A stretch of DNA of 41,919 nucleotides from a virus. The notes under the pieces were generated by a model. The model was given only the letters and a program-made list of their open reading frames with translations, was not told the DNA's origin and made no database searches. The stretch lies in the IMG/VR virus record IMGVR_UViG_3300043039_000053. One strand, written 5' to 3'. Both the position numbers and the translations under genes were made by a program. Of this stretch, positions 30,988-39,502 are shown in pieces; the first letter of the stretch is position 1, and every line of letters starts with the position of its first letter.

Positions 30988-31299
30988 ATGGCCACCTACG
31001 GCGTAAATCTCAAAATCGACGTATCAAAGATCAAGAAAGAGCATCTATTCAAGGGTGAAAAAGGCGCCTACCTGGACCTGACCGCGTTTATCAACGTAGA
31101 CGAGCAAGGCCAATACGGCGACAACGGAATGGTCACGCAGAACTGGAAGGATCAGCAGAAAGGCGAAGGGCCTATTCTGGGTAATGCCAAGGTGTTCTGG
31201 CGTGATGATGGCCATCAGGCGCAGCAAGCGCCTAAGCAGCAATCAGCGCCAACAGGTAAAATGCCGGAGCCGATTGACGATTTTGATGACGATAAATGA
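30988..31299 (+). CDS. putative ssDNA-binding protein with acidic C-terminal tail
   Basis: 103 aa ending PEPIDDFDDDK (SSB-like tail). Position is after the annealase genes. Confidence 0.4.
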   Translation: MATYGVNLKIDVSKIKKEHLFKGEKGAYLDLTAFINVDEQGQYGDNGMVTQNWKDQQKGEGPILGNAKVFWRDDGHQAQQAPKQQSAPTGKMPEPIDDFDDDK

Positions 31300-31581
31300 A
31301 TGTCGCCTGTCGTAGCGATGCGACAGTGAAAACCCCTTGAATTGCTGGGAACTCTGACCGGATGAAGCCGAAGACAATCAGCAGCGAAGCCCGAAAGGGA
31401 ACGTTCAACGACCAGCCGAAAGGCGTACACTCAAGCGAGTGGAAGCGGGGGGCATCTCACAGAGATGATGATATGGTCTGATCTGCTTGGAAACAGGTAG
31501 CTGCCGAAAGGCGGGTTAAGGTTAGCGCCCTTAATCGAACACAATTGATTCCTTTCTGAATATACCATTTAATGATACAAT
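31300..31581 (+). ncRNA. candidate structured non-coding RNA or 3' UTR
   Basis: No ORF of 60 aa or more on the plus strand. It holds a chain of hairpins, three of them capped by GAAA (31390-31399, 31415-31424, 31503-31512). A possible closing helix pairs CCCCTTGA (31333-31340) with TCAAG...GGGG (31431-31450). Confidence 0.3.
31573..31581 (+). promoter_or_regulatory. possible extended -10 promoter TGaTACAAT
   Basis: The predicted start would fall inside the terminator hairpin that follows, so this transcript could escape termination. Confidence 0.25.
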
Positions 31582-31603
31582 GCCCTCTCAGGGGGGCTTT
31601 TTT
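31582..31603 (+). terminator. rho-independent terminator
   Basis: GCCCUC-ucag-GGGGGC (one G.U pair) followed by UUUUUU. Confidence 0.7.
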
Positions 31604-31837
31604 ATGACATGCAAAAAACCATCCGAATACCTAACCGCCATCCTATCCGGCGAACTGCGCCCAGCAGACACCCCTCCCGCCATCCAATCCTGGCTGCAAT
31701 TCATCTGCTACCGTATCGCGGTAGACATGCAAGGCCTGCCCCGCGAGCAACAGCGAGAACGCGCCAGAGAGTACCCTGACGCCGTTTTAGAGATTGTCCG
31801 GAAGTGGTATCAGGTGGCACAGAAAAAAGGGGCCTAA
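31604..31837 (+). CDS. hypothetical protein (77 aa)
   Basis: ATG 31604 lies 7 nt after GGGGGG. The track start at 31580 would place the terminator hairpin inside the coding sequence and has no SD. Confidence 0.45.
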   Translation: MTCKKPSEYLTAILSGELRPADTPPAIQSWLQFICYRIAVDMQGLPREQQRERAREYPDAVLEIVRKWYQVAQKKGA

Positions 31838-31842
31838 GCCCC
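31823..31842 (-). terminator. rho-independent terminator downstream of tnpB
   Basis: The minus strand reads GGGGC-uuag-GCCCC followed by UUUUUU. It overlaps the stop of the plus-strand ORF. Confidence 0.7.
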
Positions 31843-31942
31843 TAATCATCCACCTCGTCCGGCGTAGTCGTCGTGTCCAACTCAATCTCGCCATCGCACA
31901 GCATCCCGTCCGAGGCAATCTCCCCGCACAGCCACCGTTGAC

Positions 31943-31960
31943 ATCCTCCCCGGCCTGAAG
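31943..31960. repeat. subterminal motif ATCCTCCCCGGCCTGAAG (tnpB 3' side)
   Basis: It matches 33283-33301 apart from one extra T there. On the minus strand it is part of a hairpin, UCCUUGGCC-uuca-GGCCGGGGA. Confidence 0.8.
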
Positions 31961-31980
31961 GCCAAGGATTCCTACGGCGC

Positions 31981-33222
31981 TCAGGCGCGGCATGGAGCCT
32001 TACCTGAGTCGCTTTGGTGGGTTCCTGCTGCTGGCGACCTTATTGCATCACTCACTTCACAGGCGAACCGGGCGTGTCCCGCCCTTAGTATGTTGATCGC
32101 GCCGACCGTGTCGGCGTTTTCCTTAAAGCCGCAATCCACGCAGTGGAACTGGGCCTGGGTTTGGCGGTTCTCTGCCGACACATGGCCGCAGGCTGGACAG
32201 GTTCGACTGGTGTTGTGTGGCGGCACCGCCACCAACCACCCGCCGTGCCATTGGAGCTTGTAGTCCAGTTGGCGCCGGAACTCGAACCAGCCCTGATCCA
32301 GAATGCTCCGGTTCAGACCGGATTTGGCCCGGACGTTGCGCCCGGGTTGATCGACCGTACCGGCCGCTGACGCCGACATATTCCGCACCTTTAAGTCCTC
32401 GATACACACCATCGCGTGGTTTTGGCTGATGGTCGTCGTGGCTTTGTGCAAATAGTCGCGGCGGGCGTTGCCAATCTGGGCATGAATCCGCTGGACTTTA
32501 GCTTTGGCTTTCTTCCAGTTGTTGCTGAATTTGGTTTTGCGACTGAGCGCCCGTTGCGCCTTGCGCAGTCGGGCCTGGTGTTTCTTAAAGCTGTTAAGGG
32601 GTTTCAGGTGATCCTCGCCCTCAAACGCCGGCAAGGGACGATCAAAGGCGGCAAAGCGAGCCACGCCCAGATCAATGCCAACGGCATCGCCCTTGGGGGT
32701 CGGCGTTTCCACTTCTCGCTCAGTCTGGATGCTGACAAACCATTTGCCTCCCGATTGACTCACGGTGACGTTTTTCACCGTGCCCAGAACCTCACGGCTG
32801 TTGCGGTATCGCACCCAGCCCAGCTTGGGCAGGAACAGGCGGCCGTTCGCCTGGTCGAGCTTGATTTGTTTGGGGTCGGGGTAGCGAAAGCTGTCGGAGA
32901 TACCTTTCTTTTTGAACCGAGGGAAATCGGCTCGTTTGGAGAAGAAGTTGGTGTAGGCCCGCTCCAAATCTTTCAGTGTTTGTTGCAGTGGATGAACCGG
33001 AGCCTCCGCAAGCCAGACGGTTTTCGGGGTGTTTCGCCAGTGGGTGATCTGCTTGCAGAGCCCGGCGTAGTTCAGCTTCTTCTCGCCTTGCTCATAGCGC
33101 TGCTTTTGCAGCGCCAGCGCCTTATTGAACACGAACCGACAGGAGCCAGCGAAACGGCGCATAAGGCGCTGTTGCTGGCCATCGGGCCGGAGTTCGTATT
33201 TGAAGGCTTGCAGGCGTTTCAT
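31981..33222 (-). CDS. tnpB: TnpB (IS605 OrfB-type RNA-guided endonuclease)
   Basis: 413 aa. RuvC-type residues are in IDLGV, IEDL and NADTVGAINI, with a zinc finger CPACG...CVDCG. The N-terminus MKRLQAFKYELRP is close to enterobacterial IS609-type TnpB (recalled). Confidence 0.9.
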   Translation of the reverse strand: MKRLQAFKYELRPDGQQQRLMRRFAGSCRFVFNKALALQKQRYEQGEKKLNYAGLCKQITHWRNTPKTVWLAEAPVHPLQQTLKDLERAYTNFFSKRADFPRFKKKGISDSFRYPDPKQIKLDQANGRLFLPKLGWVRYRNSREVLGTVKNVTVSQSGGKWFVSIQTEREVETPTPKGDAVGIDLGVARFAAFDRPLPAFEGEDHLKPLNSFKKHQARLRKAQRALSRKTKFSNNWKKAKAKVQRIHAQIGNARRDYLHKATTTISQNHAMVCIEDLKVRNMSASAAGTVDQPGRNVRAKSGLNRSILDQGWFEFRRQLDYKLQWHGGWLVAVPPHNTSRTCPACGHVSAENRQTQAQFHCVDCGFKENADTVGAINILRAGHARFACEVSDAIRSPAAGTHQSDSGKAPCRA

Positions 33223-33282
33223 TCAGCTCATCCATCACTGTTCATGCATACAGTATTATAGGCCACGTTCCGTGGCCACGCT

Positions 33283-33301
33283 ATCCTTCCCCGGCCTGAA
33301 G
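33283..33301. repeat. subterminal motif ATCCTTCCCCGGCCTGAAG (tnpB 5' side)
   Basis: Direct-repeat partner of 31943-31960. Adjacent are a 7-bp perfect hairpin (GGCCACG-ttc-CGTGGCC, 33261-33277) and a minus-strand TATAAT (33260-33255). Confidence 0.8.
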
Positions 33302-36250: not shown

Positions 36251-37000
36251 TTATAGCTCCTTAATAAACTCTTTCTTTGTGTTTTTCTTGCTGTGAACCC
36301 ATAAATGGCATGGCTTGCATAGCAATATAAGATTTGAAGGCTCAGCTCTTAGGCTCTCTACCTGAAAACTTACAATATGGTGAATATGGAAGTTACCTCT
36401 GGAATTCTCCGTATTGTGATTTTTCCCGCACCTCTGACATATTGCCTTATCCCTTGCCCATACGGCTTTTACCGCGTCAGCCCATTGCTGAGTTGAATAG
36501 AACGCTTGCCGCTCTGGAGTTGATCCTCCTTTCCAATTTGGGTGATCCTTATCAGAAAATTCAGGATGGTGCAGCCAGTGGACTCCGTCCTTTAAGAAAG
36601 GAACCCGTCCGTCATTTATTCGCGCCTGCCTCAATTTTTCTTTCGTTTCATCAGTGTGCGACATCCCAGCGAATGGTGATTCTTGACCATGCTTAAAACC
36701 CTGCCCATATTCATTACCTCTTGGCCTTGTTTGCATTCCATAGTCCCTAATCCATTCCCAAACCCTTTTTGGATCTCTTCCTATCTCTCTTGCAATCTGG
36801 TTTGCACTTTTACCATTTACGCAATACTCAGACTCAAGCCATTCCTTTGTGAAGCCAAGCGCCTCTCTCTGCGCCTTTTGCCATTCCCCCTTGCAAGCGT
36901 TATCGCAGAAAAATTGGTGGATTCTTCTGGATTTTTGGTAGTTCCAGGTCTGACGGATCAGGGCTTTCCCGCACTGAGAGCATTCGACTTCTTCTTTCAT
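36251..37000 (-). CDS. HNH endonuclease
   Basis: 249 aa. N-terminal CSQCG...CDNAC, and C-terminal FHIHHIVSF...NLILLCKPCHLWVH. It looks markedly AT-rich by eye. Confidence 0.8.
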   Translation of the reverse strand: MKEEVECSQCGKALIRQTWNYQKSRRIHQFFCDNACKGEWQKAQREALGFTKEWLESEYCVNGKSANQIAREIGRDPKRVWEWIRDYGMQTRPRGNEYGQGFKHGQESPFAGMSHTDETKEKLRQARINDGRVPFLKDGVHWLHHPEFSDKDHPNWKGGSTPERQAFYSTQQWADAVKAVWARDKAICQRCGKNHNTENSRGNFHIHHIVSFQVESLRAEPSNLILLCKPCHLWVHSKKNTKKEFIKEL

Positions 37001-39017: not shown

Positions 39018-39502
39018 GGTTCCAACTCCCCAGCCCGCAATGCGGACGCTTCCAGCTTGCCGATCAACTTGTTGACGTACCACGCGCCTTTCTTAGCGTC
39101 CTCTACGCCGTTCTTTTCCCACATGCGTATCAGGTACTCTAGCGCCCTGTCCCAGTCGCTAAACTGGTCGTGAGGTACGCCAGCGGCCTGAGCCTTGCGG
39201 GCCAGGTCTTGGCGCAGGTCGTAGACTTCATAGCCTTCGTGCAGCTGGTAGTGTGGCGGCTGGTTGACCATATCCGGCTCCGGCGCATAGTCCTGCTCTT
39301 CTTCCGGTGTCATCATGCTTTCCAGCCAGGCATCACGGGCCAGCTGCCAGTCGAAGAACGACCATTGCCCGCCCTCTTTGTACTCAACATGCCGGCCATG
39401 CGGCAGCACGGACTCGTTCGCCACCACATCGCATGACGCATATCCCTCGGGCCATTCTGAGACGTGCGAGGCCAGCCACTCTAAATCCGGGTGCATGCTC
39501 AT
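39014..39502 (-). CDS. DUF3310-like protein
   Basis: 162 aa. The C-terminal half (VNQPPHYQ...ALEYLIRMWEK...DAKKGAWYVNKL) resembles DUF3310 (recalled). Confidence 0.5.
   Translation of the reverse strand: MSMHPDLEWLASHVSEWPEGYASCDVVANESVLPHGRHVEYKEGGQWSFFDWQLARDAWLESMMTPEEEQDYAPEPDMVNQPPHYQLHEGYEVYDLRQDLARKAQAAGVPHDQFSDWDRALEYLIRMWEKNGVEDAKKGAWYVNKLIGKLEASALRAGELEP

Follow-up and report, generated by a model that had tools for sequence, protein, structure and literature searches.

The 3' end of a phage SSB-like gene

The window, by which we mean the whole 41,919-nt stretch of viral DNA analysed here, represents a tailed phage of ~42 kb. Its terminase shares ~81% identity with the terminases of Pseudoalteromonas phages, and the phage is known from metagenomes only (JGI 3300043122, SRR11805501). 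Megablast of the locus and of window positions 1-25000 against 50,697 phage records returned no match. A 16-mer scan of genome contigs gave at least 120 loci, all of them chance matches, and among the matches listed none aligned to the intron described below (nhmmer).

The gene of interest follows a Rad52-like annealase gene and a gp157-like gene. Read without splicing, its frame runs from ATG 30988 to 31299 and ends ...PEPIDDFDDDK. An earlier note, made from the letters of the window, had described what comes after it as a structured, non-coding gap of about 300 nt (31300-31603) downstream of the SSB-like gene, ending in a strong terminator. We find that the structured element lies inside that gene (Table 1): it begins at 31294, within the apparent last two codons (AAA TGA), and the non-coding description holds for the intron but not for 31548-31559, which form a three-codon exon plus stop. 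The terminator (31582-31597 and its T6 run) is a real hairpin. It sits 3' of this second exon, however, and in relatives it is part of an endonuclease cassette's leader, so it does not form the 3' end of the RNA element.

The host protein of the window matched nothing in Pfam or PHROGs, and NCBIfam SSB models matched its tail alone, far under their cut-off. An AlphaFold (AF2) model of an intronless homolog, P0024 (pLDDT 74), contains four strands, a short helix, a disordered linker and the tail; Foldseek found no match to it in the PDB, and the model matched uncharacterised phage proteins only. No OB-fold of bacterial-type SSB (PF00436) was recognizable in the window's host gene by profile or structure. 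Because domain, profile and PDB matches are absent, 'SSB-like' refers here to the tail and to synteny with the Rad52-like and gp157-like genes; the protein may still bind ssDNA.

Table 1 Features at the 3' end of the SSB-like gene (window coordinates; P, paired region)
Feature	Position	Strand	Remarks
Exon 1	30988..31293	+	ORF translation; ends ...PEPIDDFDDD; GACGAT invariant before the intron in 9 copies
P1	31290..31305	+	Exon CGAU (31290-93) with guide GUCG (31302-05); 4/4 pairs invariant in 9 copies
Predicted group I intron	31294..31547	+	254 nt, ORF-less, IA-type topology; RF00028 match and covariation
P10 half of internal guide	31298..31301	+	GAAU with AUUC 31548-51 (first 4 nt of exon 2)
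P2 hairpin	31307..31326	+	8 bp; 2 pairs changed on both sides; GNRA loop, GCGA in the window and GCGA/GCAA overall
P3	31333-39 with 31446-52	+	CCCCTTG with CGGGGGG; 2 compensatory pairs
P4	31343-48/31378-83	+	Enclosed by P3; TTGCTG/CAGCAG
P5	31353-55/31372-74	+	Enclosed by P3
P5a	31359-61/31368-70	+	Enclosed by P3
P6	31384-85/31403-04	+	Enclosed by P3
P6a	31390-99	+	CCC-GAAA-GGG; enclosed by P3; 1 compensatory pair
P7 pseudoknot helix	31410-14/31474-78	+	GACCA/UGGUC; invariant in 9 copies
P7.1	31415-24	+	GCC-GAAA-GGC; GNRA loop (GAAA, GUAA or GCAA) in all copies
P7.2	31428-41	+	2 compensatory pairs
P8	31453-57/31463-67	+	CATCTC/GAGATG; 2 compensatory pairs
P9	31483-31500	+	ATCTG/CAGGT, GAAA loop; 1 pair changed on both sides
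P9.1	31503-12	+	GCC-GAAA-GGC; 1 pair changed on both sides
P9.2	31515-35	+	TTAAGG/CCTTAA; conserved loop UUAGCG; 5/6 pairs changed on both sides
Omega-G, predicted 3' splice site	31547	+	Terminal G of intron; invariant, directly 5' of IPF codons in 9/9 copies
Exon 2	31548..31559	+	ATT CCT TTC TGA, Ile-Pro-Phe-stop; 12 nt
Homing-endonuclease cassette leader remnant	31560..31606	+	Similarity to endonuclease-bearing loci ends at ATG 31604
-10-like box TGATACAAT	31573-81	+	Within leader
GC-rich hairpin with Shine-Dalgarno G-run	31582-97	+	Terminator-like; within leader
T6 run	31598-603	+	After leader hairpin
TnpB gene (OrfB_IS605, Cas12f1-like_TNB)	31981-33222	minus	430 nt downstream

A full-length match to the group I intron family

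The earlier note could not match the RNA to any class. The Rfam scan that it had proposed (cmscan) gives a single match above the gathering threshold in the whole window, to RF00028, the group I catalytic intron, at 31272-31500 on the plus strand. The match scores 86.8 bits (E 6e-21) against a curated threshold of 50 bits and covers model positions 1-253, the full model. A permissive rescan of 31150-31700 yielded no other Rfam family at E < 0.5, and close copies at the same SSB site in other phages score 75-96 bits. The longest open frame within the element has 54 codons and overlaps the core helices.

To examine the fold, we aligned nine distinct intron sequences found at the same codon, wrote out the canonical helices and counted the pairs. 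The resulting structure has 74 pairs in 16 helices, all canonical in the window copy. Across the alignment 97.6% of cells are paired, a share that drops to 32-43% if the 3' strands are shifted by 1-3 columns. Sixteen pairs are altered on both sides, a count that none of 500 column shuffles matched, which is the covariation in homologs that the earlier note had proposed looking for. Compensatory changes occur in P2, P3, P6a, P7.2, P8, P9, P9.1 and P9.2. Because P1, P4, P5, P5a, P6, P7 and P7.1 do not vary among the nine copies, covariation is neutral there and these helices rest on the Rfam model. P7 differs from the Rfam consensus (GACUA/UAGUC) by a single compensated pair and otherwise matches it; the helix (31410..31478) brackets P7.1, P7.2, the 3' half of P3 and P8. 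The peripheral 3' domain is formed by P9, P9.1 and P9.2 (31483..31535).

P7.1 and P7.2 are extra helices placed between P7 and the P3 3' strand, where cmscan renders them (29 nt) as an insertion. Helices at this position are the hallmark of IA-type introns, which are common in phages; within that type the element is putatively IA2-like in the Michel-Westhof scheme. The thermodynamic comparison with shuffled controls gave a weak signal (minimum free energy -84.6 kcal/mol, z = -1.65; 11/200 shuffles fold equally well), although the minimum-energy fold independently recovers most of these helices, including those in the P3 domain. As a test on its own the thermodynamics would be weak; what decides for group I identity is the covariance-model score together with covariation across nine homologs.

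Much of what had been read from the letters survives this analysis. The element is a structured RNA, read from the plus strand, in which GNRA-capped stems are important, and the stems listed are real, with every pair canonical. CTGTCG/CGACAG is P2, extending to 8 bp; TTGCTG/CAGCAG is P4; CCC-GAAA-GGG and the first GCC-GAAA-GGC are P6a and P7.1; CATCTC/GAGATG is P8; the third GAAA-capped stem is P9.1; and TTAAGG/CCTTAA is P9.2. To the three GAAA-capped stems must be added a fourth, on P9, whose arms had been noted without their loop, and the GCGA loop on P2. The proposed closing helix had its 5' strand right (CCCCTTG of P3) and its partner wrong: TCAAG is part of P7.2, and the true partner is CGGGGGG.

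Empty sites and a three-codon terminal exon

Once the element is taken out, the host sequence is continuous again and conserved. With the spliced protein as query, a search returned 432 homologs, which begin MATYGV..., and 83 of the best 120 of these 432 end in ...PF, mostly D-I-P-F. Two intronless homologs, P0024 and P0026, end PEPIDDFDDDIPF, identical to the end predicted for the spliced product. Only four of the best 120 end in DDDK or DDDKQNVA, and these alone have the insert: the window's product, P0010, P0038 and P0087. In the contigs of the last three, a gap of 300-530 nt follows the gene and contains an RF00028 match of 75-92 bits. By comparison, in the intronless locus of P0024 (L004) the stop comes directly after IPF and the next gene 10 nt later, the uninterrupted tail DNA of this type being GACGACGACATCCCATTT. 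Homologs that end in IPF plus eight residues contain no hidden insert; their frame continues past IPF into an overlap with the next gene. With the copies added by pattern scans of viral and metagenomic contigs, the total came to nine distinct introns at the same codon. A precise empty-site comparison comes from L172, which is 81% identical to the intron-bearing locus L001 from -690 to +628 once the L001 intron is removed.

The spliced end, DDFDDDIPF, is the interaction motif conserved at the C-terminus of bacterial SSB (PMC5872125), and the intron splits its IPF tip from the acidic run. In relatives, exon 2 reads ATTCCTTTC, ATACCATTT or ATTCCGTTC, followed immediately by TGA, TAG or TAA. Its four substitutions are all synonymous and in third positions, and the stop varies in identity but not in place. 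Exon 2 thus shows purifying selection and varies as a translated exon does. Part of its conservation could nonetheless be due to P10 pairing and to a recent common origin of the mobile unit, as opposed to selection on the protein.

Predicted splice sites and splicing

At the 5' splice site, U31293, the last base of exon 1, forms a wobble with G31302, and this U-G pair is present in 9/9 copies. P10 has 4 bp in the window and 2-4 bp in relatives, with 83% of cells paired. An alternative 5' splice site after 31281, at which cmscan places P1 on an upstream GACGAT duplicate (31276-81) and which would also stay in frame (...PIDDIPF), was rejected by comparison alone. The upstream GACGAT is unconserved in relatives, and in L001-L003 cmscan uses the GACGAT adjacent to the intron, its model beginning 9 nt before the proposed site; for these reasons we take 31293/31294 as the 5' splice site.

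From these features we infer a splicing pathway that would follow established group I chemistry. The internal guide 5'-GAAU/GUCG-3' (31298-31305) would form P1 with the end of exon 1 (CGAU) and, through its GAAU half, P10 with the first bases of exon 2 (AUUC). In the first step a free guanosine bound in P7 would attack 3' of U31293, and the freed 3'-OH would then attack after the terminal G31547, joining the exons. The predicted junction is ...GAUGACGAU joined to AUUCCUUUCUGA (ligated-exon sequence GATGACGATATTCCTTTC), so the mature mRNA would read ...GAT GAC GAT/ATT CCT TTC TGA and encode a 105-aa protein ending DDFDDDIPF. Unspliced RNA would instead stop at AAA-UGA and give ...DDDK, with the tip absent. 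The in-frame UGA (31297-99) sits within the P1 loop. In all copies the frame closes 2-7 codons into the intron, with K, KQNVA, KENVA or EANVA as the tip-less ends. Because the stop lies only 4-6 nt into the window intron, a terminating ribosome would sit on P1, and translation could compete with splicing.

Taken together, these data lead us to read window positions 31294-31547 (plus strand) as a group I (IA-type), probably self-splicing intron in the mRNA of the SSB-like gene, a reading to which we give a probability of about 92%. The kind of element is already known. What is new is its site, three codons before the stop, where it splits off the IPF tip, as well as a terminal exon of three codons that gene callers overlook. 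Such programs end these genes at ...DDDK and a stop (P0001, P0010, P0038, P0087), missing the three tip codons, so the genes look tail-less though they probably are not. The same annotation trap affects canonical SSB genes in L013, L016, L018, L152 and L165.

A putative endonuclease cassette follows the intron in most relatives

In 7/10 loci, an ORF of ~156 aa begins ~45 nt 3' of exon 2; it is absent from the window, L018 and L003. The encoded protein, with the pattern MITKxCKxC...GHHDDYDxPLxVxWLCxxCHxxWH, aligns along its whole length with phrog_2340 ('endonuclease', E 1e-43) and has weak matches to HNH and endonuclease VII families. PHROGs alone recognizes it, searches of Pfam, PDB sequences and NCBIfam having returned nothing. 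A scan of viral contigs for this endonuclease recovered the intron-bearing contigs and two distant matches only. Its leader is conserved, with a -10-like TGATAnAAT, a GC-rich hairpin containing a GGAGG ribosome-binding site, a T-run and the ATG. Homing endonuclease genes of T-even phages are controlled by a promoter and a hairpin that hides the ribosome-binding site (PMC2988022); by analogy, the leader of the phrog_2340 cassette may act in the same way.

In L172 and in L173/L174 this cassette is also present, here behind host genes that are uninterrupted. At the insertion point these loci, which have the endonuclease without the intron, read GAG GAT AAT/ATT CCT TTC and GAC GAT GAC/TTG CCG TTC, compared with GAT GAC GAT/ATT CCT TTC in carriers. 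All four states are found, namely intron with endonuclease, each alone, and neither. We consider it rather likely that the endonuclease has driven the spread of the intron. The putative HNH-type enzyme would probably cut uninterrupted tails, and repair would copy in the intron together with the endonuclease (collaborative homing); by splitting the putative target, the intron would protect its carrier. Because all four states exist in nature, this proposed pathway is directly testable.

In the window, the leader is followed by an unrelated 77-aa ORF, and tblastn detected no endonuclease remnant anywhere in the window. The GC content rises from ~0.50 to ~0.60 past 31625, and the gene that lies downstream in L001 occurs inverted in the window at 39050-39274. 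These observations, together with the IS605-type TnpB gene, indicate that the window copy probably lost its endonuclease in a rearrangement.

One intron at the tails of unrelated proteins

The intron is patchily present at one exact site in divergent hosts. In L013, L018, L016, L152 and L165 the interrupted gene encodes a canonical OB-fold SSB (PF00436, 54-131 bits), whereas in the window, L001, L002, L003 and L159 it belongs to the Pfam-less family. The two families have nothing detectable in common except the tail. An apparent homology between them (hhalign probability 97%) was discarded, since it came from the shared tail and linker and fell to 1.6% once these were removed. The introns are 84-100% identical, compared with 33-75% for the exon-1 DNA of their host genes. 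Between several pairs of loci, DNA similarity runs only from -23/-53 through +267, covering the last 23-53 nt of exon 1, the intron and exon 2 (for example, -31 to +267 between the window and L018, and -23 to +268 between L016 and L018).

The gap between intron and host identity, together with the short co-converted flanks, suggests a mobile intron that homes into tail-coding sequence in any gene. Also new is the evidence, in this pattern, that one intron lineage, with its neighbouring endonuclease, entered unrelated genes through a shared short motif. We also put forward, more tentatively, that the intron-endonuclease unit homes to DNA encoding ...DDFDDD/IPF instead of to one given gene and so could invade any phage gene with such an end, and that co-conversion carries the last ~8-17 codons along, transplanting and homogenizing a docking tail between unrelated proteins. 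If this is true, a selfish element would be tracking, and perhaps spreading, a short linear protein-interaction motif.

Alternative explanations

One further possibility, compatible with the homing intron that we favour, is a splicing switch, in which the spliced share of the mRNA sets the ratio of ...DDDIPF to ...DDDK protein in the course of infection and thereby tunes the recruitment of host or phage partners. Because unspliced RNA encodes the tip-less form, splicing efficiency could indeed set the amount of partner-docking protein. The intron parts the acidic run precisely from IPF, the portion of the SSB C-terminus with essential partner contacts (PMC5872125); the in-frame stop gives a defined tip-less product in every copy; and the intron has been kept in three loci without the endonuclease. 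Group I introns of bacteria and phages, however, generally have early in-frame stops, which may aid folding (PMC3984707), so these stops are unspecific as evidence, and the intron is absent from most family members. We therefore consider a switch unlikely. Less probable still is a decayed relic that no longer splices, so that the protein truly ends ...DDDK and the IPF codons are a fossil. The missing endonuclease gene of the window copy, the adjoining IS element and rearrangement, and the modest thermodynamic z-score would fit such decay. Against decay, the window keeps 74/74 modelled pairs canonical, its Rfam score equals the level of its relatives, its differences from them are compensatory, and exon 2 and the stop are intact, with synonymous variation only across copies.

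The other two readings we regard as having almost no chance of being correct. A stand-alone structured non-coding RNA (an sRNA or riboswitch-like leader) that follows the SSB-like gene and ends at the terminator would explain the abundance of plus-strand hairpins with GNRA loops and the terminator-like hairpin downstream. It fails to account for the full-length match to the group I model with no competing Rfam family, for an element that starts within the reading frame and whose flanks join into a conserved protein end, or for the absence of that element, base for base, from related genes; moreover, exon 2 separates it from the terminator, which travels with the endonuclease cassette even without the intron. 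An IStron-like chimera, in which the group I intron would be joined to the IS605-family element carrying the TnpB gene, is suggested by the position of that gene downstream of the intron region, given that in IStrons an IA2 intron carries an IS605-family element at its 3' end (PMC3984707, PMC4227781). Like an IStron, the window has an IA-type intron and an IS605-family TnpB within 500 nt. Unlike in an IStron, the intron stops at G31547, before exon 2, and the IS is not embedded in it: TnpB lies on the opposite strand, past exon 2, the leader and the 77-aa ORF. No IS lies near any of the nine related introns, and we regard the adjacency as coincidental.

Comparison with known systems

As a group I intron, the element is, judged by its sequence, an ordinary member of the phage pool. 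It shares the RF00028 family and the placement of P7.1/P7.2 between P7 and P3' with the IA-type introns of T4 td, nrdB and nrdD. The closest introns by sequence are those of Bacillus phage phiAGATE terL and SPbeta bnrdE and those in the DNA polymerase genes of rV5-like coliphages and Pseudoalteromonas phage pYD6-A, and alignments to these, spanning 68-85% of the window intron, show 68-74% identity in the core. Less closely related introns are found in other genes, which they often split in several places. Phage IA introns also resemble it in having an in-frame stop just inside the intron and in being inserted at the most conserved part of a DNA-metabolism gene. The window intron differs from them in that it has no internal ORF, that its 3' exon is only three codons long and that its host gene and site are new: an SSB-type host gene occurs in 0/371 phage records with a related intron, and in open-access papers we came across neither an intron nor a homing endonuclease described at an SSB tail. 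By the textbook rule, the codons that introns and homing endonucleases occupy are the most conserved and least mutable ones, and this locus offers an unusually clean case, with a 6-residue interaction motif common to unrelated proteins as the target.

Two T4 systems are similar in part. SegG, a free-standing GIY-YIG homing endonuclease encoded between genes 32 and 59, cuts gene 32, which encodes the T4 SSB (PMC2988022); there too an endonuclease gene lies directly 3' of a phage ssDNA-binding gene, although the homing target proposed here is one that we infer. SegG belongs to another nuclease family, T4 gene 32 has no intron and the gp32 tail does not carry the DDDIPF tip. In the other system, the neighbouring free-standing HNH endonuclease mobE mobilizes the nrdB intron, which has no working endonuclease of its own (PMC2790892); the nrdB intron keeps a defunct endonuclease ORF, whereas the window intron has none.

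A further parallel in organization is collaborative homing, as in cyanophage S-PM2 psbA with F-CphI, the DNA polymerase intron of T3/T7-like phages, and ICP1 terL with a T5orf172 endonuclease. In these systems, as in 7/10 of the loci studied here, an ORF-less intron lies adjacent to the gene for a free-standing endonuclease; there the intron splits the endonuclease target, thereby shielding its carrier (PMC6083498, PMC10448857, PMC3984707), as it would here. The present unit differs in that the endonuclease gene begins ~45 nt after a 12-nt exon, making the two parts almost contiguous, in that the window copy is without the endonuclease, and in that the pair sits behind two families of host genes that are unrelated outside the tail.

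Host protein family

The gene that carries the intron in the window (30988-31293 plus 31548-31559) belongs to a family of 432 homologs, of ~100 aa and with an SSB-type tail, for which searches for Pfam, PHROG-family and PDB structural matches found none. Homologs occur in isolated marine phages (of Vibrio, Pseudoalteromonas, Marinomonas and Methylophilales), where they are annotated only as 'hypothetical' and adjoin Rad52-like or ERF recombinases. These proteins may either adopt an ssDNA-binding fold that has yet to be described or act as adaptors that bear the tail. In ~25 of the best 120 (of 432) homologs, the protein does not end at IPF but continues for 8-9 residues (APLQCLLA, APMQCLPA or MRLHWLEGG) that overlap the next gene; the Phe, which is usually C-terminal, is internal in these proteins. 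We looked for an insert in these extended homologs, and none is present.

The DNA encoding the tail was compared between families. An uninterrupted gene of the window type (L004, 1586-1633) is 78-87% identical to the canonical SSB genes that contain the intron in three related loci (L152, L013 and L165), with the identity limited to the last 30-85 nt, which encode the tail. Around the insertion point, L004 differs from the intron carriers by four synonymous changes (GAC ATC CCA TTT versus GAT ATT CCT TTC). This pattern fits either of two readings: the families have exchanged tails, or these bases are required by the intron or the endonuclease.

Conserved intron loops and a probable downstream rearrangement

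In the alignment of nine intron copies, loop L9.2 (window 31521-31529; alignment columns 241-249) keeps the sequence UUAGCG, or UUUGCG in one clade, and five of the six pairs of the P9.2 stem covary despite this conserved loop. Loop L2 is always a GNRA tetraloop, either GCGA or GCAA. Both loops probably make tertiary contacts of the peripheral domains.

Directly past ATG 31604, the GC content of the window rises from ~0.50 to ~0.60, and this start codon is followed by an unrelated ORF, a terminator-like hairpin and a TnpB gene (see table). Furthermore, window 39050-39274 holds, in inverted orientation, a gene that in a related locus (L001) lies downstream and is co-oriented. Taken together, these features (31604-33300 and 39050-39274) suggest an insertion or inversion that has a breakpoint where the endonuclease gene was lost. 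The window also encodes a free-standing HNH endonuclease, between DNA methylase-like and SNF2-type helicase-like genes, that has no relation to the tail-associated endonuclease family.

Features of the window and of related loci
Feature	Location	Strand	Details
77-aa ORF	window, after ATG 31604		unrelated
Terminator-like hairpin	window 31828-31843		bidirectional
TnpB gene	window 31981-33222	minus	IS605-type
HNH endonuclease gene	window 36251-37000	minus	PF01844, E 2e-8
Extended host-protein homologs	P0004, P0007-P0009, P0011-P0013 and others; L177 1501-1845		continue 8-9 residues past IPF
Intron relative	L156 478-687		Walker A region of T7 gp4-like primase-helicase
Intron relatives	L150, L153		two copies each, tandem pairs; structural-looking gene
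Intron relatives	L163		three copies, one followed by a GIY-YIG-like ORF

Related introns in other genes

Introns that are more distantly related to this one split other genes of phage type (in L149, L150, L153, L154, L156, L161, L163 and L164). In another locus (L155, 7100-8900), two group I introns that are kin of the window's split an elongation factor Tu gene, with RF00028 scores of 99.2 and 97.6 bits. This locus comes from a contig of 570,750 bp (JGI Ga0222634_1000003), which may represent either a huge phage or a bacterium. Immediately upstream of the gene lies a GIY-YIG-like ORF, and 2 kb downstream there is a class A RNase P RNA. The two introns are positioned within the GHVDHGKT and DCPGH motifs of elongation factor Tu.
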